A stretch of 64,000 nucleotides of DNA from a virus. Location: IMG/VR virus record IMGVR_UViG_3300033113_000110, positions 797 to 64,796 of that record; one strand, given 5' to 3'. The notes beneath the pieces are model-generated. The model was given only the letters and a program-made list of their open reading frames with translations, was not told where the DNA came from and made no database searches. Of this stretch, positions 27,426 through 41,160 are shown piece by piece. Within the stretch, counting starts at the first letter, position 1; every line of letters starts with the position of its first letter. The position numbers and the translations under genes are program-made.

Positions 27426-30400
27426 ATGCGTCATCAGCGAAGCCTTACAGACGAAGAATTGGCGTTGCTTTCTGAACCTGTTGATCGTCCGACTGCAGAG
27501 TGGGACACATTTCAGGAGACGGGGCAATTGCGTCCAGTAGAGTCATCTCGACCGGAAGGACGAGTGATCGGTGGCCCTTGGGCTGCTTTTCATGGTGTTG
27601 AGGAACTTCCTGCTGATACCTCGCGGGAGGCTGATGATAATCCTTGGTATCCACGTTGGGGTGAGATAAGAAAGCATTTTTGGCCTTCTGCCGGTCGGTT
27701 GTATGATGAGGTGTTGGGGTATGTTTCACCTCAAATTTTATTTGATCGGTATGCTGGCTTTACAGAACAACAACGTGAAATAGGTTCTCTTGTTTCTGAT
27801 GCTGCTCGGTCTCTTTTTTCTTTTGATGTTTCACCACATTTTTTGACAGGTTCAGAGATTGGTACCCTTCCTACGACTCCCGAAGAAGACCTTTCATTTT
27901 ATCGTTCCCGCTTGGAAAGTCAATTTCCCCACACTGCTCCGTCTATGCCAGGTTATGATGATCCTAAAGTGGCGGAAGAATTGGAACTTCGGGAATTGAA
28001 GCGTAAGTACCCTTCACTTACTCAAATGAGTGAAGGGCTTCAGGCTCTAACACCGGTGCATCCTGAACGTGGATGGCAAGGCACACAGGCTCTTTCTCGT
28101 ATGGTTGAGCAAGAACCTTTTGAGTTTGCATTGGATATTGGGCTGTCGGCTACAGGTATCGGTGTGGGTGCTGCGGGTGTCCGTGGAACTGTTCGTGGTT
28201 TTCGCGTAGCTCGGCGTGCTGTGAGTCCATTAGAGGATATAGGAGATGCTCTTAGTGATATTGATGTGTTGACGGGTGAGTTATCGCCTGTAGGACGTTT
28301 ACGCCGTTCTACTGTGGATATAGAAGTTCAAGGGACTCGTTCTTGGGATCTTCAGAATTTATCGAGATTTGGTAGACGTAGAAGGGAATTGGGGACGGGT
28401 GTTCTTGTTTCGCCGACAGAGATCGTTACAGCTTCTCATACGCTTACTGGAAAAACGGATGCGGCTTTTCCGAATATAGAACGAATTACTGCGACAATAG
28501 CTGGTGGTCAACGTATCGATGTTGGAACAATTTCAGGGCTTTCGCCTGAAGCAGATATTGCGGTTTTGGATTTACCGGACTCTGTGGACGCTCCTTTATT
28601 GGATATTGCTGGCGATATTGATGACTTTGATGTGCTTTATGGTAAGTCTCGGATTGGCGAAGGTTATGATTCAGGGACTATTGGTAGGGAGATTGCTCGT
28701 GATCCGATAACGGGTGCGGCATTAAGAGAAACGAGCTATGTCGGTCGAGGTGGGTTGTCAGGGGCAGGTTTGGCTACTGAACGTGGTCAGCTGGCTGGTA
28801 TTTATTTAGGCACTTATGACGATGTGGGTATGTTTGCTGATGCTTCTACGGTTCAGCGTTTTCTGGAGGAAGATCGTCCTACGTTTGACGTTCAAGATTT
28901 TGATAGATCGTGGCATCGGCAACGCTTAATGGATCGTGCTTTGTATAATAGAGAGGGTGCTGAGATTGGATTAGGTGTTCGATCTTTGGATGCTCTTTCA
29001 ACTTTTGGTAGTCAATATGAACTTCAGTCTCGTGATCCTGATGATGATTGGCGTGGTTCGCTTTTGGGTATGCTCGAGGAGATGGAGCAATATAGACGTG
29101 TTGATGAGAGGCGATTGGCCTTAGATGATATACAATCGGCTATGTACGAGGGTTTAGGCTTCTCTCAAGATGCTACGCTTGCTGAAATGTTCCGTGCAGT
29201 TGAAAAAGACCCGGAATTGTTTTTCTATGTCGGTCGCCGCGGTGTTGATGTTGAGGATAGAGCCTATGTTGATCGTGGAGAGACGAAGCGGTATCGCCGT
29301 TGGGAAGAAGCTGGCTCTCCAGTAGATGAATTTGATTTTGAGAAAAGTAGTCGTCTGGTTCCGGCTGGTCAATTTCTTTCGGCTGAAGGTGTGGCTTCGC
29401 AGCACCCGCATGTTGTGAAGCATGGGGTATTCGGGTATGGAAACATTGAGGCTTTGGGGCAGCACTTGAGACAAGTTTTTGAAAAGGCTGGAGATGTTCC
29501 GCTCGATGATTATTCTTTACAGTTGGTGAGAGGTAGACCTTCTGAGATAGATGCTACAAAAATCGGCTATGGGGATGTAACGCGGAGATCGTCTGCTGAT
29601 TTTCTGCCTGGAGCTCAAGGGTTACTGGAATTTGATTTGCCTTCGTTGGATGTTTTACGGGATGTTTATTCTGAAGTGAGAGGGATGCGTTCACATCCGC
29701 GAATCGCTGAAGGACTTTCATGGATACCGGATCCGACGGTTACGAAAGATAGAGAAGGTCAATATATCCCTGTAGGTGAGAGACCGTCAACGGTAGTTGT
29801 TACGGAGCAGCTCTCTGATGAGATGGCGTTGTCTCGTATTCAGATTGCTCGGGGAACACCAGAAGGAATGGTTGTTGAACCGATGCTATTTCATGCCGAG
29901 GGACGGGCAAAGGCTGTTAAACGGAAGCCTATGCATGAGTGGACACATGAGGAATTAAGTAGGGAGACGCTTGTTGGGGAATCTTACTGGGTTCGGCAAG
30001 CTCGTGCTGAGATGTTTAGGAGACGTTTTGAATCTGCTAAGCAGCTCAGTGAACGCTTGGCAAATGCTCCGCCTGGTCAACGGATACCGGTGAGTTATGG
30101 GCGTGCTTTGCAGTCAGAAATTGCGCGAGACTTTGCTGCGGCTAAAAAACAGTCGGAGACTTGGGATTCAGAATACTCTTTTGAAACTGATATTGCCGCT
30201 GCTCATGCGGCTGAGGGGGCGCGGGATCATACGGAGGCTTTTAATCCACAGGACTATAAATCAGAATCTTGGGAGCCGGTAGGCGGTTATGTGGCTGACG
30301 ATGATAAAACAGGACAGTTTTATGAAGGTTGGGTCGATGAGCATGGTGATTTTCAGGATGTTTGGAAAGAAGGCGAGGAAATTGAGAAACAGGAATTGGA

Positions 30401-33400
30401 TGTCTTTTTGGAAGTGGAGGGTGATGATTATACTGAACCGGTGGCGGTCGGTTGGATTGATGAGTATGGAACCCATGATCCTGGTATGGATACTCCCGCG
30501 GGGATTGATGCAAATAAGTTGGCAGTTGATGTCGCTCGTGATGAACAGCGGCGTTTGTCGCCGGAGTCTCAATTGAAGATTTGGGACATGTTTTCGGGGT
30601 ATATTGAGAGACGGGAATATGAGCAGAAATTATTGACTGAGGGGGATCCTGAGTTAGAAGCAGAAATTATTGCTCGTATGGATGTCCGTGATCCTGATTG
30701 GCGTAGAAAGATGCGTGTTGCCTCGCGAGCGGATCGTTCTGTTCAGTCTCCTGGATTGCGTCCTTATTGGGAGCAGGCTGTTGCGGAACAACCGTCTTAT
30801 GGTGTTAGTGATGAGACGCTTTTTCACATGGATATTCCGCGTGAAGAATACTATCGATCTCAACGAAAGCATTGGCAAGTACGTGCCGATGAGCTTTGGT
30901 ATGGTGGGCAATTTGAGGAGTATTATCACCATGTAGAGCCGGTTCGGGAGCGGGCGTATCAATTGCATCGGCAGGCTCGTGATGCTGAATCTGCTGATCG
31001 TATTCAGATTACGGTAGGTGAAAAGGATACTTCGGCAGTGTATCCTGAGAGTGATGTTGATGCACAGAAATATCATTCGGCAGCTGCTATGGGAGTCTAT
31101 TTGCCTGATCCACCAGCAGCGCAATTGGCACAGACGGGAGTTGTTGATATTTCTATCCCGAGGCATGATCGAAGATTTCGTGATGAGACAAGTTTTGAAC
31201 GGGCACCGGATGATTTAGTGCTACGTGGGCAGAGACAGCAGCGTTATGGTGCTGAGCCGATGGATATTTTCATGGAGAATATCCTTTGGAAAGAAGCGGG
31301 TATCGAGGAAACGAAAAGAATCCCGGAAGTGAGTGGGGTAGTAGATGAATTTGTCTATGCATCGGAATTGGATGAAGATGTTGTTCGCTATAAGAAACCA
31401 TCGGGGGCGGTTGAGAGTTTTAATGTACCTGAAGCGGAGGCGTGGCATCGGAGTGATATAGAGGAAGGGCGGCTGGCACGTCCCCAGTATTCTTTTCGAG
31501 ATTCAGACACTGCTCCGCCTGTAGATGTTTTTGATGTTTATGGGTTAACAGAAGGAACGGAGTCTCTCACTTCTTTAGACTTGGCTACCTTGGGTTCGGT
31601 TCGACGGAATGTTTTGGAGAGATATACACCTCGGAGAGTTTGGGAAGCGGCACAGACGGCGGAGTATCGTCAAGCAGCGCGTAGACCTATCGGACAGGGT
31701 ATTGAGGAAGGCTTAACGGCTGATGAATTAAGGGACATCCGTTTGAGAGGTGAACAGATACGGGCTGAAAGGGCGTTTAATGAAGCAACGGCTGAAGGTG
31801 TTGCTTATGAGGCTGAAGCGCGTCGGACTGCTCAGGCTGGTGCTTATCGGATGCAAGAGGATCCGGCTGCAGCAGGAGCGCGTGAAGCGGTAGCAGAAGA
31901 ATTTAGACAGGAAAGGGAACGGGCGGATAAAGCTTTTCGTAAAGTGTGGGATGAAAGTAAGCGGGTTATTCGGGAATCTCCTGGAGAACTTCCCGAGGAA
32001 ATTGCTGATCCGCCGAGTAAGATCAAAAGACGCTATAATTTACACTCGTTGCCTTGGGAAGATGTTGAACCGCTTGACTTGGATACGCCTCGCGCGCGGT
32101 TGGCTGGCTTTGGCGGTATTGAGAGTGAACGGACTTATGGGCTTGAAATTGAACTTATTACAGATTTGACACGTGCGGATATGGAGCGTGAACTTGAGTG
32201 GCAGATGGCACAAGGGTTATCACTGAAGTATGATTTATCGTTGAGGACGGCACGTTCTGAAGTTGCTCTTGAACATCATCCCCCTGCTCATGTTCAGTTT
32301 TCTCGGATGCATCTGCCTGGTGAAATTCAACGTGCAGAAGCGGCGGATTATGAGAGGTACAGATCGCAGTTTACGGGGATGCCCGGTGAGGAAAGAATTC
32401 GTCCGGAAGATTTTGAGACTCGGTACGCACATGAATTGGTTTTCCCGGTAATGCAAGGTGAGGAAGGCTTAGAATTAATCGGTCAAACAGTCCGAAGGCT
32501 TCAGGAATTTGAGACTGAATTGAATACCTCGATGGGTATGCACGTTCATGTGGGTGCCCAGGATCTATCGAACTATGATTTGGTTGGGATTTGGGGAGCG
32601 TTTGCGGCACGTGAAGATGTGATTGATCTTATGCATGAACCGTCTCGGAGAGGTCAAGGTTCTGCTTATGCGGAGACTTTGGTGAGGGAGCGTGGTGAGG
32701 GTTCGTTTACTTCATTGGGTGAATTGCTACGTGCGGAGATGCGAGGTGGCGATCTTTCTCAAGCACAACCTGTCTCGGAATTGGAACGGATGCGTTCTCG
32801 ACTTGAAACTGCGCGTCGGCGGTCTTTGCTTTCATCGGAACGGCGAGAAGGTTTTTTGGATCAGGTAGGCTATGGGCATCGGTATCAGAAATTGAATCTT
32901 AGGGGATTTGAGCACCAGACGATCGAATATCGGCAACCGGCACCGACACTTGATGTTAGCGAGATTGAACACCATATCGGGTTTATCACGAACTTTGTGG
33001 ATGAGTTTTCAGGGAAGCCTTTAGAGTGGGCGATGAGACAGGATCCGAGATTACAACAGGAATATGCTGGTCTCGATTTGGTATTTGAAAGACCTGATGA
33101 AACTGGACAGTTGCTTCTATTCCCGGAAACTCGGACTGAACTTCATTCGGCAGATGAATTGACACCTTCGCAACGACAGGCAATGGAGCATACCTACGGT
33201 GCGGCGGCTGTGATTGCGGGTCCGGGTTCAGGTAAATCCAGAACATTGTTGGAGCGGTTGCGCTACTTGACTGAAACAATTGATGAGCAGTCTGGTAAGC
33301 CTATCGCAAGACCTGAAGATATTCTTACGCTCGTTTTTGGAAAAGAAGCAGAGAAGGATTTGATTGGACGGGGTGGAGAGTTTGGCGGCCCCTGGAACAT

Positions 33401-36400
33401 CTTTACGGTTGACGCTTTTGCGCGTGGCGTTGTTCGTGAGAATTTCGGGGAGCTTGGGTATGCACGGGCACCGGATATTTCTACGAGTACTTTTGAGGAT
33501 TGGCTCTCAGGGAAGCAGATACCAGAATTGGGGCTTTCGGGAGTTGGTGGTGACGGTGTTGAGGCATGGGCAAAACTTTATGAGGAAACTCGGCGTGGTT
33601 TTACTACCGGTAGAGAAGATTATTCGGCTTTACCTGAAGGGTTGCAAGGAGCGATCCGTGATTATCGACTTGAGAGATTTCATGCTGCGGAGATGGATTT
33701 TACTGATGCTATTTCGCAAGCCGGGTATCTTTTAGAGACGAATGAAGCGTTGCGTCAACGGTATCAAGATCGTTTTGAGTTTCTCCAGGTAGATGAATTT
33801 CAGGATATATCGCCGATCCAGTGGCGGTTTCTTCAGAATCTTTCTCCGAATCCTTGGGTTGTTGGTGATCTTGACCAAGGTATTATGTCCTTCCGTGGTG
33901 GCACTGGCACGGTGATGCGTGAGATGATTGAGTCTGGTGTCTCGTTGTATAATATCGAGGAAAATTTCCGCTCGACACCAGAGATTGTTACCGCGGCACA
34001 AGGGTTTATTCGATCGAATCTTGATAGACTTGATGTATCGCAATCAGCAGTGAAACCTTCGGGTGAACCGGTTATGATGGTTGGTGTTTCGCCTTTGACG
34101 ACTGAGCAGCAGGCGATTGCGCGTATTGCTGAACATGTAAGAGAAGGTGAAGAAACAGCGATTTTAACTGCAACGAATCGTGAAAAAGATGTTTTTGAAC
34201 ATGAGTTGGCTGCTGAGCTTCGGGGTCGCGGTTGGGAAGATCAGCAGATAAAAGACCATTTGACCTTTTCTACTATGCATTCTGCGAAGGGGCGGGAATG
34301 GCAGAATGTTTTCCTTCCGATTAATCTCCTTGAATCTGATTTTGGGAATACGCAGAGGCTTTTTACATTGCCTTCGCCTTATGCTCGGACTCCGTTTGAT
34401 TTTGCTGAACAGGAACGGGTCTTTTATGTCGCGATGACACGAGCACAGGAACGGCTTACAATTTTTGGGGATCCGCAGCATCCGTACTATGAACAGGTAA
34501 CTCGTGCGATAAGTGGTGTGGAGGAAGGTGCTGTGCCGTCTTATCTTGAACCACCGGATGATGTCCCGGAAGCTGCTGCGGCTTCAACACGAGGTGGTTT
34601 AGGCGGGTTCTTTGAACGTTTTGGTTCTGGACTTGATAGGTTTTTGCATGGCGATCCGACGCAGCGTACTCCGAGACGGGAAGGACGGCGGCGAGCTCGC
34701 ACTAAAACGGAATTGCATTCAGTGGATGAGCCTTATCGTGAAGGGTCTGATATTCCCGGTTTGGATCAGTTTCTCGATGTAGCAGATAGACATCCGGGTA
34801 TTTTTTATCGGTTTGAGAGTGATGATCCGTCAGGGTATGTTTCACAAGATTTAGCACAGACACATGCTATTTTGAGAGAACATGAAGGACAAGCAAATTT
34901 ACTTCCAGATTCTTTCATGGTGCCGGAGTTCGGGAAATATGATACGCTTATTCGTCCTGCTGGACAGGATCGCTGGAGTTTGTATGATCAGCAGCATGAG
35001 CAGGTAAATCGGGGAGAGAGGGAAGGAACTTTTGATCTTTATAGGGAAGAATATGATAGGGAAACGGATGATTTTGAATTTGTTTATTCGGGACCGGTGG
35101 AGATTGGTTATGTTGGGAGGCGTGGACTTTATGGGCATGTGGATCGTAGCTCTTTTGTAGAGGTGAGTCTAGAAGTGTTAGGGTTTCGGGCATCTCAAAC
35201 GCCTTTGCAACTTTCTGAAACTGACCGACATTTTTCTGTTCATTATGGAACATCGACTCCGTTTCGGCAGTACATAGGTGATCTGTCGGAGGGTGAAGAT
35301 GTTTTTATGTCGCATGGGGTACTGGCTCGGTTGCCAGTGAATTTGGATACTTCTGGAAGTTATGGTCAGCAACGTTATGCTGTTAATCCCAATTTAGGAG
35401 AGTTCATTGAAGCGGGTAACGTAAATTTGAATTGGTTGGCTCAGTCGATAGAGGCTCTCCCGCAGAATGTGAATGCTGATCGGATATGGGGTGATTATCT
35501 CGCGGGGCAACAAGGTTCGGAATTGCTTGGACTTGAGCGGGCTGTTGAGGGGAGTCGGCAATGGTTGGAAGGTAGACATCGTGGAGCGGTTCGTAGGGCG
35601 AGAAGTCGTCGAGTGCGCACTGATTTGCATAGCTTGGATGATTCAGATGATATTAATGCAAAGCTAAACGATATATGGGAAGATGAGCAAAACTTTTATG
35701 ATGCGAATTTTGCTTTAGATCCTCCGACTCCGGTTGAAGCTAACCCGGATATTTTGTTTGGGACTGATCCTACGCCTGAATCCGCTCCTGAATCTGTTCC
35801 TGATATTTTATTTGAATCTGAACTTGAGTCTTTTGCCTCTGATATTTCCGCTGCTCATAAGAGCGTGATGTCGGTAGAACTTGGACGTGGTTTAGGATTG
35901 GGGCAACGGCTTTCTCGGTGGTTCTCTGAAGCAGTGGAGGAGCGTGCTTGGGGTGGACTGACGCATTCAGCGGCGAATATTCTACAGGATGCTGCGACGA
36001 TTAATGTAGCGGCTTCGCTTGCAGTTGAAGGTGTTCGGACGGCGGTCGGGCATGATCTGAATATCGGTAGTCTGATCCATGCGGGTGCATCTACGATGGC
36101 GGCAATGGGGGCAAAGGCTGTTGATGCTCGTTTTGGGTCTCGTGGTGTGCTCCCGGAAGCTCGTGCTGATCTTGGTGCTTTGGCTGATGTTATTCAGGAT
36201 GTCCCGGAAGATGCCGCGGTGCATTTACAACGGATTTTCGAGGAAGCGGGTGCTGGTACTTCACGTTGGCGGCGAGGGAGTCTTGCTGATCAGTTAGAGC
36301 GTTATGACTGGAGTGGTCTTGAGTCGATGTTTGGTGAGTCAGGAGCGGCTTACCTCGATGAATTTGCTTACCAGACACGGCGGTTTGGACAACGAAGCTA

Positions 36401-39400
36401 TGGGACACAACGGAATTGGCAGGAATCATTACTTGATATTTATGCTGGTGGTATTCCACGCGCAACTCGGTATACTTATGATCCGAAATCTGGTGAAGTT
36501 GATTTTGAGATGAAGCGGCGGTGGACGCTCGATAGATTGCTCGAGGCGGGTTCGGATCGGTATCCACATTCACCGATAGGGGCGTGGCATGCTCGTCGTG
36601 AGCAGTTGAGAGAAGACCCGCGTCAAGATATGCTGCGGCATGTCTTTGGACCACTTCAAGGTGAAGATGTTAGACCACACGAGTTGTACATGTTGCTTCC
36701 CGAAGCACGCGGAATTGGACGCTTATTTGGGCGTTTCCATAGACGGCCAGATAATGATTGGGTCATGGAAGATATTGTTCGTGGTGTTGGGGCAACTCGA
36801 TGGGTGGATCGAATTGCTGAACGGAAGGAATTTAGGCGTGAACATCAGAGTATCCTTGAAGAACGGAGACGCTCGCCTGAGCTTTATCAGTGGCAAGACC
36901 CGGCACATTTCTATGGTAAGATTGCCGAGTCGCTCGGTATAGATACCTCGGATTTTGAAGGTTTTGGAGAACGTTTGGGGAGTCCATATTCTGAGTATGG
37001 TCGCTTTTTCTCACGATTGCCTAAAGCTGCGAAGTATCCGGTGATTGGTGGGGGTGCCGCCGTCGGTGGGAAACTTGGTTATGAGTTATTCTTCGGTGGA
37101 GACGATGATGAAGAATTAGTTCTTGATGATCCTGCTGGCTATTCGTTGTCTGCTCGGTATCCGATACTTGGTGCTGTTCAGCGGACACTTCCATATCGAC
37201 GGTTGCGAGCGAGAGCTGAAAATCTTCTCGATGATGTTTATGGTGAGGATTCTTTCCACAGTGAGATGTTGAAATCGATTGGTCTCGGAAAGAAAGGGAA
37301 TTTGCCGTGGGAAGTTAAGCAGACTTTTGTTCAGACTGGACAGATTCATGCTCTGGTTCAGTCGGGGATGCACGTATCGACTTTCTCGAATATCTTGTCT
37401 CGGTATCCGCTGCTTGCAGCACCAGCGGCTTTCTCGGCTGCGCGGGATGTGATCTCGCCGCCGGATGAAAGGGTGGTTGAACCTTCACAGTCTTTTTGGT
37501 CTAAATATCAATTGTCGCCTGATCCGTGGATACCGCGTTGGAATCCCGAACCTCCGACTTCTGGACAGATAAGTGCATTACAGTCGCAAGGGCTATTGGC
37601 TGATGATTATGAACTTGAGATTCCTGAACCGCCGTCGTGGGCTTGGTGGGATCCGGTTGAGAATTATCGTCGTGATGAGGAGGTTCGTGGACAGAAGTTG
37701 GCTACGGAAGGACAGGTGGATCTGCTTGGGTCTTTAGGGTTGTTGCCTGAAGGTTATGACCCTTCTGTTCATGAGCCTTCAGAGATTTCTTTGAATCGTG
37801 GACAACCTGGAATTCAGGATGTTTTGCCATGGTCGGTTTATGGGATGTTTGGTGTTCTGCCGGAGACAGGGTTTTCCTATTTTCGTTCGCGTGGTGATAT
37901 TCAGCGGAAGGATGAGGAAGGGAATTATAGGATTGATGGCTTTGAATTTGATGTTCAAGAGTCTCCGTTCCCTGGTTTCAATCCGTGGCTTGACCCACAT
38001 CCAGAGGGGATTTTGGGTGAAAGTCCCCCTGCTGAGGGGAGTTTTGATTGGGATTTTGGGCATGGATTGTTGGGTATTGGTGTCAATCAGTTTGCTGGAG
38101 TTGGATACGGTATTGGTGGTGGGATTCCTGATCCCGATGCGGAACTATTGGAACTCTATAAGGAACTTGGTATAGATCCGAAGCGGATTACAAGGGAAGA
38201 TGCAAGTAAGCTGATTGAGTATCAGAAGAAACAGCGGGAGGCTCAAGGGAATAAGGCGACGGAGAAACAGATTGTAGCATTGACGAAGATGTATCCGGGT
38301 AAAGATTTGTCTAAATTGACAAAAGAGCAAGCCTCGGAACTCTTTGATGCTTACGAACCGCCGCCTAAAATGGCATCGGATGCACAGCTCACGGCGTTGA
38401 AACGGATGTATCCTGATAAGGATTTGTCCGGGCTGACAATGGCACAAGCTTCAGAACTTTTTGATGCTTATGAACCGCCACCGAAGATGGCAACGGAAGT
38501 GCAGAAAGCGGCGTTGACTCGGATGTATCCCGATAAAGATTTGTCCGGACTGACGATGGTACAGGCTTCGGAACTTTTTGATACTTATGAACGTCCGGCA
38601 CGGAGTCAAGATGCAACGCAAGCTCAATTGGATTACTTAGATCGGCTGCGCGGTGGTGGTTTCGGTGATGTGATGCCTATTGAGGATGTTGATGAATCTG
38701 ATGGGCTAACACGTCAGGAAGTTTCAGCTTTGATAGATTTTGAGAAAGCGAAACGGCGTTCTGCTGAGATTTCTCGTGAGTCGGCTGGACCGACGATGGC
38801 TACTGAATCGCAACTTCGGTATCTTGGACAGTTGAACCCGGAACGATATGGCGGACTTTCTGGTGCTACTGAAGATGTGATGGGTATAGAAGATGTTACT
38901 TTCGATGATGGGATCACGGCTCTTGAAGCGAGAACGCTTTTTGATTATGAGGACGCGGTTCGGAAGTCGCGTGAGTCGGCTGGACCGGCAATGGCTTCGG
39001 ATGCACAATTACAGGTACTGCAACGGATGTTCCCGGATCAGTTCGGGGCATCGAGTGGTGTAGAAGTAGAAGAACCACCGATGATGGGAATCGAGGAGAT
39101 AACTTTCGATGATGGGATTACTCGGCGTGAAGCGGCAGCTCTGTTTGATTATGGTGAGGCTGTACAGAAATCTGCCGGGCCCCCAATGGCATCGGAAGCA
39201 CAAATTGCCGCACTTCAGCGTTATTTCCCGCAGATGTTTGAACCGACTGAACAGGCTGAGGAAGAACCGCTTGTACCGTTGGGGCAGATAGATTTTACAG
39301 ACGGGGTTACGCGTGAGGAAGCACGGCAAGCTTTTCGGCATGTGCCTGAAATGCCGCCGCCGATGGCAACACAGAGACAGATTGATCGTTTAGAAATGGA

Positions 39401-40577
39401 GTTTCCGCATGCTTTCAGGCATGTCGGACGGGTGGATCAGTATCTTCAGACGGGTCAATCCTATGGTGTTGTGAAGTCTTTGGAAGACATCTATGATGCG
39501 GATACTTTTACCGGTATGCTTTTTGATGCACCTACGGGGCAACTTTTCAAGGAGGATACGGTTCGACTTGGAGATTTCAACGCACCAGAGATTAAGCCGG
39601 ACCCGAGTAAGCCGCTCGAATATCAGGAACGTGAAGCGGCACGGGCACGCGAGGCACGAGATGTTTTTCGGTCTATGGTTCAGCGTTTTAATATCGGTCG
39701 AGATGTCGATCAGGAAGGCTATGTGATTCCGATTCAGTATAGGCATGATGCTCAGATGCTTGGTGGATTGGCTCGTGGGAAATATGGTCGGGTCTTAGGT
39801 GATGTTGATTTTGAAGGGGTTGATTATGAGCAGTTTATGATTCAACAGGGGATGGGGTCTGTCTATGGGGCGAGTGTCGAATGGGGTGCACGAGAGATTG
39901 ATCCACTTGAATTGTGGCGGCGGTCTCCGACTTTCTTAGAACAGTTCGGTGAGGGGACGACGGGTCTCCTATGGCAAATTCCTGAAGTGGCTATTGGCGG
40001 TGTTTTTCAAGGTATGGATCCGTTTGATGCTCTTACTGAGACTGTGGCACAGGTGCCGGGTGCTTTGAAGGATATGGCGATAGGACAGGCAAAGCAGACA
40101 TTGACTCAGGCAACGAAGGACTTTTTCAAGGAACGTTTCACGGATGAATTTACGCCGAATAATCTTTCATTCGCTCAGCGGTATATTGGGGATTTCGGTG
40201 GTGTCGGTGAGAAAGTAGGTGTCTTCAAAGATAAAGCGGCTGGCTTCCTTCAAAGTGGATGGGGCGCAGCTATCGCTCCGGCAGCTCTTGCGGCTGGCAC
40301 TGCTATCATTGGAGAACGTAGCTTGGATATGAACTATGCTGAGGTTATACCGACCCGGGAAGATCGGGTGAAGGCGTTTGATCATTATGTTTCGCAGCGG
40401 CAAGAATCTACTACGGGGGGGGCGATGAGTTCTGATGATGCTGCTTTGCGGGTGATAAAGAAGGCGTTGCGTGAAGTGCTTTCTGAATCAGGGCTTGGGT
40501 CTATGGATGATCTATCGACGAAACTGGATCGGAAATTACGGGAATCGGATAGGCGGGGGATTACGCGTCCGAGATAA
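27426..40577 (+). CDS. 4383-aa polyvalent protein in the tape-measure position: trypsin-like protease, amidoligase, UvrD helicase, helical repeats, SNase nuclease
   Basis: Protease about 28290-28870 (VTASH/DIAVL/GLSG); amidoligase about 32120-33010 (YGLEIE/GMHVHVG/RYQKLN/TIEYR); SF1A helicase about 33150-34500 (GPGSGKS/VDEFQD/GDLDQ/NFRS/TMHSAKGREW/ERVFYVAMTRA); SNase about 39460-39880 (IYDADT/VRLGDFNAPE/GKYGRVLG). Confidence 0.9.
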   Translation: MRHQRSLTDEELALLSEPVDRPTAEWDTFQETGQLRPVESSRPEGRVIGGPWAAFHGVEELPADTSREADDNPWYPRWGEIRKHFWPSAGRLYDEVLGYVSPQILFDRYAGFTEQQREIGSLVSDAARSLFSFDVSPHFLTGSEIGTLPTTPEEDLSFYRSRLESQFPHTAPSMPGYDDPKVAEELELRELKRKYPSLTQMSEGLQALTPVHPERGWQGTQALSRMVEQEPFEFALDIGLSATGIGVGAAGVRGTVRGFRVARRAVSPLEDIGDALSDIDVLTGELSPVGRLRRSTVDIEVQGTRSWDLQNLSRFGRRRRELGTGVLVSPTEIVTASHTLTGKTDAAFPNIERITATIAGGQRIDVGTISGLSPEADIAVLDLPDSVDAPLLDIAGDIDDFDVLYGKSRIGEGYDSGTIGREIARDPITGAALRETSYVGRGGLSGAGLATERGQLAGIYLGTYDDVGMFADASTVQRFLEEDRPTFDVQDFDRSWHRQRLMDRALYNREGAEIGLGVRSLDALSTFGSQYELQSRDPDDDWRGSLLGMLEEMEQYRRVDERRLALDDIQSAMYEGLGFSQDATLAEMFRAVEKDPELFFYVGRRGVDVEDRAYVDRGETKRYRRWEEAGSPVDEFDFEKSSRLVPAGQFLSAEGVASQHPHVVKHGVFGYGNIEALGQHLRQVFEKAGDVPLDDYSLQLVRGRPSEIDATKIGYGDVTRRSSADFLPGAQGLLEFDLPSLDVLRDVYSEVRGMRSHPRIAEGLSWIPDPTVTKDREGQYIPVGERPSTVVVTEQLSDEMALSRIQIARGTPEGMVVEPMLFHAEGRAKAVKRKPMHEWTHEELSRETLVGESYWVRQARAEMFRRRFESAKQLSERLANAPPGQRIPVSYGRALQSEIARDFAAAKKQSETWDSEYSFETDIAAAHAAEGARDHTEAFNPQDYKSESWEPVGGYVADDDKTGQFYEGWVDEHGDFQDVWKEGEEIEKQELDVFLEVEGDDYTEPVAVGWIDEYGTHDPGMDTPAGIDANKLAVDVARDEQRRLSPESQLKIWDMFSGYIERREYEQKLLTEGDPELEAEIIARMDVRDPDWRRKMRVASRADRSVQSPGLRPYWEQAVAEQPSYGVSDETLFHMDIPREEYYRSQRKHWQVRADELWYGGQFEEYYHHVEPVRERAYQLHRQARDAESADRIQITVGEKDTSAVYPESDVDAQKYHSAAAMGVYLPDPPAAQLAQTGVVDISIPRHDRRFRDETSFERAPDDLVLRGQRQQRYGAEPMDIFMENILWKEAGIEETKRIPEVSGVVDEFVYASELDEDVVRYKKPSGAVESFNVPEAEAWHRSDIEEGRLARPQYSFRDSDTAPPVDVFDVYGLTEGTESLTSLDLATLGSVRRNVLERYTPRRVWEAAQTAEYRQAARRPIGQGIEEGLTADELRDIRLRGEQIRAERAFNEATAEGVAYEAEARRTAQAGAYRMQEDPAAAGAREAVAEEFRQERERADKAFRKVWDESKRVIRESPGELPEEIADPPSKIKRRYNLHSLPWEDVEPLDLDTPRARLAGFGGIESERTYGLEIELITDLTRADMERELEWQMAQGLSLKYDLSLRTARSEVALEHHPPAHVQFSRMHLPGEIQRAEAADYERYRSQFTGMPGEERIRPEDFETRYAHELVFPVMQGEEGLELIGQTVRRLQEFETELNTSMGMHVHVGAQDLSNYDLVGIWGAFAAREDVIDLMHEPSRRGQGSAYAETLVRERGEGSFTSLGELLRAEMRGGDLSQAQPVSELERMRSRLETARRRSLLSSERREGFLDQVGYGHRYQKLNLRGFEHQTIEYRQPAPTLDVSEIEHHIGFITNFVDEFSGKPLEWAMRQDPRLQQEYAGLDLVFERPDETGQLLLFPETRTELHSADELTPSQRQAMEHTYGAAAVIAGPGSGKSRTLLERLRYLTETIDEQSGKPIARPEDILTLVFGKEAEKDLIGRGGEFGGPWNIFTVDAFARGVVRENFGELGYARAPDISTSTFEDWLSGKQIPELGLSGVGGDGVEAWAKLYEETRRGFTTGREDYSALPEGLQGAIRDYRLERFHAAEMDFTDAISQAGYLLETNEALRQRYQDRFEFLQVDEFQDISPIQWRFLQNLSPNPWVVGDLDQGIMSFRGGTGTVMREMIESGVSLYNIEENFRSTPEIVTAAQGFIRSNLDRLDVSQSAVKPSGEPVMMVGVSPLTTEQQAIARIAEHVREGEETAILTATNREKDVFEHELAAELRGRGWEDQQIKDHLTFSTMHSAKGREWQNVFLPINLLESDFGNTQRLFTLPSPYARTPFDFAEQERVFYVAMTRAQERLTIFGDPQHPYYEQVTRAISGVEEGAVPSYLEPPDDVPEAAAASTRGGLGGFFERFGSGLDRFLHGDPTQRTPRREGRRRARTKTELHSVDEPYREGSDIPGLDQFLDVADRHPGIFYRFESDDPSGYVSQDLAQTHAILREHEGQANLLPDSFMVPEFGKYDTLIRPAGQDRWSLYDQQHEQVNRGEREGTFDLYREEYDRETDDFEFVYSGPVEIGYVGRRGLYGHVDRSSFVEVSLEVLGFRASQTPLQLSETDRHFSVHYGTSTPFRQYIGDLSEGEDVFMSHGVLARLPVNLDTSGSYGQQRYAVNPNLGEFIEAGNVNLNWLAQSIEALPQNVNADRIWGDYLAGQQGSELLGLERAVEGSRQWLEGRHRGAVRRARSRRVRTDLHSLDDSDDINAKLNDIWEDEQNFYDANFALDPPTPVEANPDILFGTDPTPESAPESVPDILFESELESFASDISAAHKSVMSVELGRGLGLGQRLSRWFSEAVEERAWGGLTHSAANILQDAATINVAASLAVEGVRTAVGHDLNIGSLIHAGASTMAAMGAKAVDARFGSRGVLPEARADLGALADVIQDVPEDAAVHLQRIFEEAGAGTSRWRRGSLADQLERYDWSGLESMFGESGAAYLDEFAYQTRRFGQRSYGTQRNWQESLLDIYAGGIPRATRYTYDPKSGEVDFEMKRRWTLDRLLEAGSDRYPHSPIGAWHARREQLREDPRQDMLRHVFGPLQGEDVRPHELYMLLPEARGIGRLFGRFHRRPDNDWVMEDIVRGVGATRWVDRIAERKEFRREHQSILEERRRSPELYQWQDPAHFYGKIAESLGIDTSDFEGFGERLGSPYSEYGRFFSRLPKAAKYPVIGGGAAVGGKLGYELFFGGDDDEELVLDDPAGYSLSARYPILGAVQRTLPYRRLRARAENLLDDVYGEDSFHSEMLKSIGLGKKGNLPWEVKQTFVQTGQIHALVQSGMHVSTFSNILSRYPLLAAPAAFSAARDVISPPDERVVEPSQSFWSKYQLSPDPWIPRWNPEPPTSGQISALQSQGLLADDYELEIPEPPSWAWWDPVENYRRDEEVRGQKLATEGQVDLLGSLGLLPEGYDPSVHEPSEISLNRGQPGIQDVLPWSVYGMFGVLPETGFSYFRSRGDIQRKDEEGNYRIDGFEFDVQESPFPGFNPWLDPHPEGILGESPPAEGSFDWDFGHGLLGIGVNQFAGVGYGIGGGIPDPDAELLELYKELGIDPKRITREDASKLIEYQKKQREAQGNKATEKQIVALTKMYPGKDLSKLTKEQASELFDAYEPPPKMASDAQLTALKRMYPDKDLSGLTMAQASELFDAYEPPPKMATEVQKAALTRMYPDKDLSGLTMVQASELFDTYERPARSQDATQAQLDYLDRLRGGGFGDVMPIEDVDESDGLTRQEVSALIDFEKAKRRSAEISRESAGPTMATESQLRYLGQLNPERYGGLSGATEDVMGIEDVTFDDGITALEARTLFDYEDAVRKSRESAGPAMASDAQLQVLQRMFPDQFGASSGVEVEEPPMMGIEEITFDDGITRREAAALFDYGEAVQKSAGPPMASEAQIAALQRYFPQMFEPTEQAEEEPLVPLGQIDFTDGVTREEARQAFRHVPEMPPPMATQRQIDRLEMEFPHAFRHVGRVDQYLQTGQSYGVVKSLEDIYDADTFTGMLFDAPTGQLFKEDTVRLGDFNAPEIKPDPSKPLEYQEREAARAREARDVFRSMVQRFNIGRDVDQEGYVIPIQYRHDAQMLGGLARGKYGRVLGDVDFEGVDYEQFMIQQGMGSVYGASVEWGAREIDPLELWRRSPTFLEQFGEGTTGLLWQIPEVAIGGVFQGMDPFDALTETVAQVPGALKDMAIGQAKQTLTQATKDFFKERFTDEFTPNNLSFAQRYIGDFGGVGEKVGVFKDKAAGFLQSGWGAAIAPAALAAGTAIIGERSLDMNYAEVIPTREDRVKAFDHYVSQRQESTTGGAMSSDDAALRVIKKALREVLSESGLGSMDDLSTKLDRKLRESDRRGITRPR
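38250..38600 (+). repeat. Three tandem 117-bp (39-aa) repeats in the giant gene, with degenerate copies to about 39400
   Basis: MASDAQLTALKRMYPDKDLSGLTMAQASELFDAYEPPPK. Confidence 0.9.
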
Positions 40578-41047: not shown

Positions 41048-41160
41048 GTATTCTTTTACTCAGGGGTGGGACTGGTAGTTCTACCTTAGCATCTACCAAG
41101 TGTTGAGTAAGGGAATTATGAGTAAGAGAACGTGCTTTGGCGCGTTCTCTTTTCTGTTTA
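41048..41160 (+). ncRNA. Structured leader/attenuator, copy B
   Basis: Homologue of 6734-6846 with compensatory and G-U changes; loop TGGTAG pairs with CTACCA; terminator AGAGAACGTGC-TTTG-GCGCGTTCTCT-TTTCT. Confidence 0.85.

Follow-up and report, generated by a model that had tools for sequence, protein, structure and literature searches.

We analysed a window of 64,000 bases (positions 797 to 64,796) of the IMG/VR virus record IMGVR_UViG_3300033113_000110, a viral contig of 68,448 bases that CheckV estimates to be ~64% complete. One giant open reading frame on the + strand (27426..40577; 13,152 bases, 4383 aa, 480 kDa) encodes all of the modules described below, several others without an assignment, and not a single cysteine. 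The modules described are a Trypsin_2/HtrA-like serine protease, an amidoligase, a UvrD-type SF1 helicase, a 304-aa cassette (aa 2430-2733) that found no family match in Pfam (E<=1) or in a protein atlas, and, near the C-terminus, an SNase-like nuclease region (aa 4039-4147; 39540..39866, + strand; phrog_452, E 0.0025) that shares 66-79% identity with its relatives. Protease, amidoligase, UvrD and SNase thus stand in a single ORF and cassettes are swapped among relatives, which is the architecture of polyvalent proteins, and we refer to the product as a polyvalent polyprotein. The gene belongs to a + strand block in which a strong terminator (41124-41151) is followed by the terminase gene, and none of the ORFs in the window could be recognised as encoding a capsid, portal or tail protein. 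Among public phage records, megablast returned no close relatives and tblastn only short matches of 35-38% to Porphyromonas phage amidoligases.

The presence of an amidoligase had been proposed in an earlier note from five short motifs, all of which were found where that note had placed them, in frame +1 of the giant ORF: GLEIE at aa 1572 (nt 32139), ELVFP at aa 1670 (nt 32433), GMHVHVG at aa 1704 (nt 32535), RYQKLN at aa 1819 (nt 32880) and TIEYR at aa 1832 (nt 32919). Residues 1568-1855 (32127..32990, + strand) match the Pfam family Amidoligase_2 (PF12224; E 2.2e-19; 70.7 bits, cut-off 22), and the match spans model positions 2-242 of 245; a six-frame search gave 76.9 bits. PHROGs concurs, assigning phrog_2443 (amidoligase) here and phrog_1967 (helicase) to the neighbouring module. 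At the level of sequence, this match is far above chance. Measured from junction to junction, as defined below, the amidoligase cassette comprises aa 1540-1906 (32043..33143, + strand), with a mass of ~42 kDa and a pI of 4.9.

The cassette was modelled with AlphaFold2 (AF2) from an alignment of its own segment, 10 giant relatives and 61 free-standing homologues, giving a mean pLDDT of 85.4 and a pTM of 0.85, with pLDDT below 50 at the cassette ends. A fold search independent of Foldseek against 48,161 representative PDB chains placed carboxylate-amine ligases in all of the top 19 ranks (glutamine synthetases, YbdK, Glu-Cys ligases, Dop and PafA; Z 10.9-6.2, ~205 residues aligned), followed by guanidino kinases at Z 5 and then by unrelated folds, well below the Z of 10.9-8.1 reached by GS, YbdK, Glu-Cys ligase, Dop and PafA. 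Foldseek likewise ranked YbdK first in the PDB (E 7e-3), and among predicted viral structures (BFVD) it returned phage amidoligases with an E-value of 3e-10. A sequence-profile search of the PDB detected no solved structure, and hhalign to E. coli YbdK yielded a probability of 3%, with the HVHVG stretch alone aligned.

Every polar residue found to be invariant, or close to it, among 77 free-standing enzymes is retained in the query and in 13/13 giant relatives. In the query these are R1569, E1574, E1576, D1603, S1605, E1670, H1706, H1708, E1730, D1734, R1741, R1742, R1819, K1822, N1824, E1834 and R1836, so that the family motifs ExE, DxS, HE, HxH, RR, RxxKxN and ExR are all present, and in the AF2 model these residues sit on predicted beta-strands. 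In glutamine synthetase (GS)-type enzymes, ExE, HxH and ExR on neighbouring strands form the metal/phosphate site, an arrangement that the cassette would share. Three other positions set the giant proteins apart. Every giant copy has M1703, A1749 and P1838 where the free-standing enzymes typically have a Cys before GxHVH (73/77), a Cys after SRRxxxxxY (61/77) and a His after ExRQ (73/77), replacements by which some function could be altered or lost. The two groups are also separated by a sharp drop in similarity, from E 1e-82 or better within the giant-protein clade to E 1e-16 or worse for the free-standing enzymes. The earlier identification as an amidoligase is thus borne out by the full-length Pfam match, PHROGs, the predicted GS/gamma-glutamylcysteine synthetase (GCS) fold and the retained polar residues; the model lacks neither the GCS-like fold nor the polar residues predicted for its site. 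The cassette (aa 1540-1906) is predicted to be a complete ligase of the GS/GCS fold that joins carboxylates to amines in an ATP-dependent manner, and it is probably active.

The same note had described this domain as fused in cis to a helicase. The two do share one ORF, and a UvrD-type SF1 helicase (aa 1912-2350; 33159..34475, + strand; PF00580, E 2.8e-27; PF13361, E 1.9e-19; phrog_1967, E 4e-53) follows directly, beginning 56 residues past the amidoligase Pfam match. The relatives do not bear out a dedicated two-domain fusion and point instead to cassettes of a polyprotein. A search seeded with the amidoligase returned 12 giant proteins of 3107-4787 aa, which are 49-65% identical to the query within the amidoligase, and one fragment of 1753 aa. 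The giant relatives are encoded on contigs of 80-150 kb, and scans of viral, metagenome and genome contigs found no close locus for their DNA. Because such a search is blind to loss of the cassette itself, a second search was seeded with residues 2800-3400. Its 13 relatives carried both cassettes in 5 cases, the amidoligase only in 3, UvrD only in 3 and neither in 2. The amidoligase precedes UvrD in every relative that has both, and the two are directly adjacent in only two relatives, inserts of 70-600 residues lying between them in eight. This independent assortment rules out a dedicated amidoligase-helicase fusion; since the cassettes assort independently, the helicase is best regarded as neighbouring cargo and not as an obligate partner. 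Another, more distant fragment also carries an amidoligase and a UvrD domain, each 39% identical to the query and with no His-Ser motif between them, a pairing that, from sequence comparison, is consistent with common descent.

Phage amidoligases had been said to occur usually with glutamine amidotransferase (GATase) or gamma-glutamyl cyclotransferase (GGCT) partners. The literature agrees, and we found a distant metagenomic fusion of Amidoligase_2 with GATase_6. The accompanying observation that the window holds no such partner extends to the whole 68,448-base record: a six-frame HMM search with PF06094, PF13522, PF13230 and phrog_2520 (the profiles for GGACT, GATase_6, GATase_4 and the phage GGCT PHROG) gave no match at E<=1, although control genomes gave matches with these profiles. 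Pfam and PHROG scans of the 74 other ORFs recovered neither GATase nor GGCT, and nine segments of the polyprotein scanned with Pfam at E<=1 yielded no hidden partner, the sole match in them being Trypsin_2. With a record of this completeness, a partner may be encoded on the part of the genome that the contig does not cover. In viral contigs, amidoligase genes co-occur with thymidine-hypermodification clusters (PMC8989533). A role in DNA hypermodification was considered here and left as a minor possibility, as the 74 ORFs include no thymidylate-synthase-like, kinase, aGPT-Pplase or TET/JBP family, and no hydroxymethylase or other hypermodification gene was found among them. That the enzyme may tag a host protein or a modified base during entry, as the earlier note put forward, is a conjecture. 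Distant members of the family are fused with a RadC-type JAB domain or with a La domain; these fusions show that the family is combined with protein- and RNA-directed modules, and they do not decide the substrate.

The protease occupies aa 323-459 (28392..28802, + strand) and matches Trypsin_2 in Pfam with an E-value of 3.1e-8 (34.9 bits, cut-off 27.6). Its triad H338, D377 and S445 is invariant in 12 family members, and its AF2 model, of moderate quality (pLDDT 68), has AlgW, DegS, HtrA and Rv3671c as the best Foldseek matches (E 1e-5). Pfam and PHROG scans of the other ORFs recognised no second protease in the window.

A short motif recurs at the borders of the modules. The giant protein contains four exact copies of LHS where 0.44 would be expected, and every copy follows a basic stretch at a module border: at L1539 (32040..32048), 29 aa before the amidoligase Pfam match; at L1906 (33141..33149), on the border of amidoligase and helicase; at L2430 (34713..34721), after the helicase cassette; and at L2734 (35625..35633), after the 304-aa cassette, all on the + strand. 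The copies at 1539 and 1906 flank the amidoligase (1540-1906), and those at 1906 and 2430 flank the helicase (1907-2430). The pattern hydrophobic-His-Ser-x-Asp/Glu brackets the amidoligase in 14/14 family members, and other module borders carry it too. The upstream copy lies ~30 residues before the GxExE strand, with Asp replacing His in two relatives, and the downstream copy ~70 residues after the ExR strand; in one relative (P0004) this site lies after a 70-residue insert. A looser form of the pattern was counted 51 times in 14 proteins compared with ~9 in shuffles, and a logo of 61 unique sites reads basic residues, Asp/Lys/Arg, Thr/Val/Ile, Glu, Leu, His, Ser, x, Asp and an acidic tail. 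In its junction context the motif is absent from the phage's other 74 ORFs. Self-cleaving motifs of the HFS/GPS type need a folded domain around the site; this type was set aside, as the junction sites sit in low-confidence linkers of the AF2 model. The simplest reading is that the in-cis protease would cut these junctions and so free the cassettes, and the motif could instead be a docking or targeting signal.

The absence of cysteine is a property of the whole family. None occurs in the 4383 residues of the polyprotein and three in ~70,000 residues of nineteen relatives, whereas cysteine makes up 1.24% of the residues in the other ORFs of the phage and 1.99% in the free-standing amidoligases. 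The two cysteine replacements in the ligase are explained by this family-wide avoidance. Avoidance of cysteine typifies proteins that are exported from the cytoplasm or threaded unfolded through a narrow channel, and in this family it lends indirect support to packaging and ejection of the polyprotein. With no recognisable portal, capsid or tail gene near the ORF, association of the polyprotein with the virion is otherwise suggested by the neighbouring terminase operon and by analogy.

Taken as a whole, these observations lead us to favour, with moderate confidence, a reading in which the amidoligase is an active ligase cassette excised from a delivered, cysteine-free polyprotein, with the helicase as mere neighbouring cargo. 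The HtrA-like protease would cut in cis at the disordered hydrophobic-His-Ser-x-Asp/Glu junctions and release a free 42-kDa ligase, and the polyprotein, whole or in pieces, would be packaged in virions and reach the next host together with the DNA. Once in the cytoplasm, where ATP is available, the ligase would phosphorylate a carboxylate to an acyl-phosphate and join it to a ready-made amine; candidates are the lysines of proteins, peptides, polyamines and amino acids. Because no GATase partner was found, the amine is not expected to be GATase-supplied ammonia. As a rough ranking of substrate classes, a protein or peptide is the leading candidate without reaching an even chance, a small metabolite comes close behind, a nucleic-acid adduct is doubtful, and a cell-wall precursor and any other class are each less probable still. 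A more specific version, which we regard as a long shot, would make the ligase and the protease a working pair that tags host lysines in a Pup-like manner with fragments made by the phage. Cuts at the His-Ser motifs would expose conserved acidic C-termini of the Glu-Leu-His type on the cargo pieces, and the amidoligase would activate the exposed carboxylate and couple the fragment to lysines of host proteins. If so, this would be a phage-delivered tagging system that needs neither a separate tag gene nor a GATase partner.

The same features can be read differently. The amidoligase might stay joined to the helicase and the rest of the protein and work with them as one machine, the helicase for example carrying the amidoligase along DNA to amidate a DNA-bound protein or base, in which case the His-Ser motif would serve for docking or as a flexible linker. 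The constant order of amidoligase and UvrD, kept even in the 39%-identical fragment that has no His-Ser between them, fits such a machine, and some polyvalent proteins are described in the main text of their survey as transferred at full length (Iyer 2017, PMC5512222). We nevertheless consider an uncut protein unlikely, given that all four combinations of the cassettes occur, that eight relatives have 70-600 aa parting the amidoligase from UvrD, and that the motif, found in disordered linkers of a protein with an intact protease of its own, has a sharply conserved core. Alternatively, the polyprotein might be cut in the producing cell in the manner of an RNA-virus polyprotein, with no injection, and the ligase would act before lysis on phage DNA, virion proteins or host metabolism. 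A protein that brings its own protease and cut-site-like motifs could be processed there as well, the producing cell has the ATP that the ligase needs, and the hypermodification clusters with which amidoligase genes co-occur elsewhere (PMC8989533) offer a role of this kind. However, ~75,000 residues that are nearly free of cysteine, including enzymes whose cytoplasmic relatives conserve it, are hard to explain if the protein never leaves the cell, and no gene for hypermodification, whether a hydroxymethylase, a kinase, TET/JBP or another, was found in the window. This alternative, too, seems improbable to us.

It might also be argued that the ligase domain is dead or repurposed and now has a purely structural or binding role in a tape-measure-like or ejection protein. 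The loss of the family-typical Cys, Cys and His would agree with this, as would the five relatives that have no amidoligase cassette. The acidic, basic and His residues typical of the GS-type metal/ATP site are, however, invariant at 49-65% identity and the fold is predicted with confidence by AF2, so that an inert domain appears very improbable. The favoured reading remains that of an active ligase cut out of a delivered polyprotein.

Biochemical work would be made easier by an amidoligase that comes without its usual partners and whose defined borders allow it to be cut out as a 42-kDa unit. If delivered as proposed, it would also extend to amide ligation the range of activities that phages may introduce into cells along with their DNA. 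The cut-and-deliver model can be tested directly through the conserved His-Ser junctions, the HtrA-like protease and the near-total lack of cysteine, and these features also serve as sequence signatures for finding cargo polyproteins in metagenomes.

Phage amidoligases are widespread, and to our knowledge none has a known substrate or an experimentally known function. They were reportedly predicted by Iyer et al. in 2009, and Amidoligase_2 is related to the phiEco32-type COOH-NH2 ligases (PF14395). The cassette shares its Pfam family, predicted fold and polar active-site residues with the free-standing phage enzymes. Those are proteins of 250-400 aa that lie beside or are fused to a class-II GATase, often with a GGCT, and have the Cys/Cys/His set, whereas the cassette has neither partner, carries Met/Ala/Pro and is embedded in a polyprotein of 4383 aa. 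PafA and Dop share the GS-like fold (Z 8.3 and 9.8), and PafA is a precedent for such a fold ligating a protein carboxylate to lysine. The resemblance is no closer than that to glutamine synthetase or YbdK; the sole Pfam match of the cassette is PF12224, and no Pup-like tag gene was seen.

The ejection or internal proteins of the T4, phiKZ and SPN3US type are likewise motif-bounded cargo enzymes that are thought to be packed, cut and injected. Their processing relies on a prohead protease and on sites that end in Glu, whereas the polyprotein has a hydrophobic-His-Ser motif, the only recognisable protease lies inside the polyprotein itself, and the lineage is unrelated. The polyvalent proteins known from phages and conjugative elements share the design, being giant multi-enzyme proteins of mobile elements whose domain set varies and for which a peptidase has been proposed to free the domains, as set out in the main text of the survey (PMC5512222). 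UvrD-type helicases are noted there in a few of them, and the protein-modifying domains that this main text names are peptidases, ARTs, kinases, GNATs and Pol-beta NTases, with neither an amidoligase nor a trypsin-like protease among them (PMC5512222). The protease here is HtrA-like and not a zincin, and the junctions are marked by a clear, conserved motif. What is distinct in the present protein is its lineage, the self-encoded HtrA-like protease, the His-Ser junction, the avoidance of cysteine together with the loss of Cys-Cys-His from the ligase, and the pairing with UvrD.

The giant polyprotein encoded at window 27426-40577, in which an HtrA-like protease, an amidoligase, a UvrD helicase and an SNase-like region are joined, contains not a single cysteine in its 4383 aa, compared with a cysteine content of 1.24% in the remaining ORFs of the same phage. 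Its relatives (P0002-P0014 and P0159-P0163) have 3 cysteines altogether in about 70,000 aa, and the family taken whole is nearly cysteine-free. P0019, an unrelated protein of 5358 aa with two amidoligase domains, likewise lacks cysteine. The giant ORF also stands out in base composition, with a G+C content of 0.47-0.50 (window 28000-40000) versus a lower 0.41-0.47 elsewhere in the window, a difference that may stem from the abundance of Arg, Glu and Gly in the encoded protein or from a separate origin.

Between two of the junction motifs that mark module borders in the giant protein lies a cassette of 304 aa (aa 2430-2733, window 34713-35624), for which searches of Pfam and the protein atlas detected no family; a single relative, P0008, carries a copy, at 69% identity. 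Towards the C-terminus, the SNase-like region is directly preceded by helical repeats (aa 3640-4010, window 38343-39455), about nine in number and each 40-60 aa long. They are of the type Ala-Thr-x-x-Gln ... Leu-Thr-x-x-x-Ala-Ser-Glu-Leu-Phe and matched no Pfam family; relatives contain helix-hairpin-helix DNA-binding domains in the corresponding part. The phage additionally encodes a separate SNase-type endonuclease of 196 aa (window 12562-13149; phrog_452, E 3.5e-11), besides the SNase-like region in which the giant protein ends.

Across the whole window, Pfam and PHROGs identified a terminase, an endolysin, ParA, DNA methylases, DUF5131 and several GIY-YIG/HNH homing endonucleases, and matched almost no ORF beyond these families. 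Neither database recognised a family of capsid, portal or tail proteins or of prohead proteases.

Among the relatives, P0159 (3693 aa) and P0161 (2455 aa) are different giant proteins of the same family. Because the longest contig is 152,186 bases for both, one genome is suggested to encode two such polyproteins. More distant amidoligase members are fused to other partners: a class-II GATase in an 839-aa Amidoligase_2 protein from a metagenomic locus (L003:6948-9467), a RadC-type JAB domain in P0020 and a La domain in P0040.
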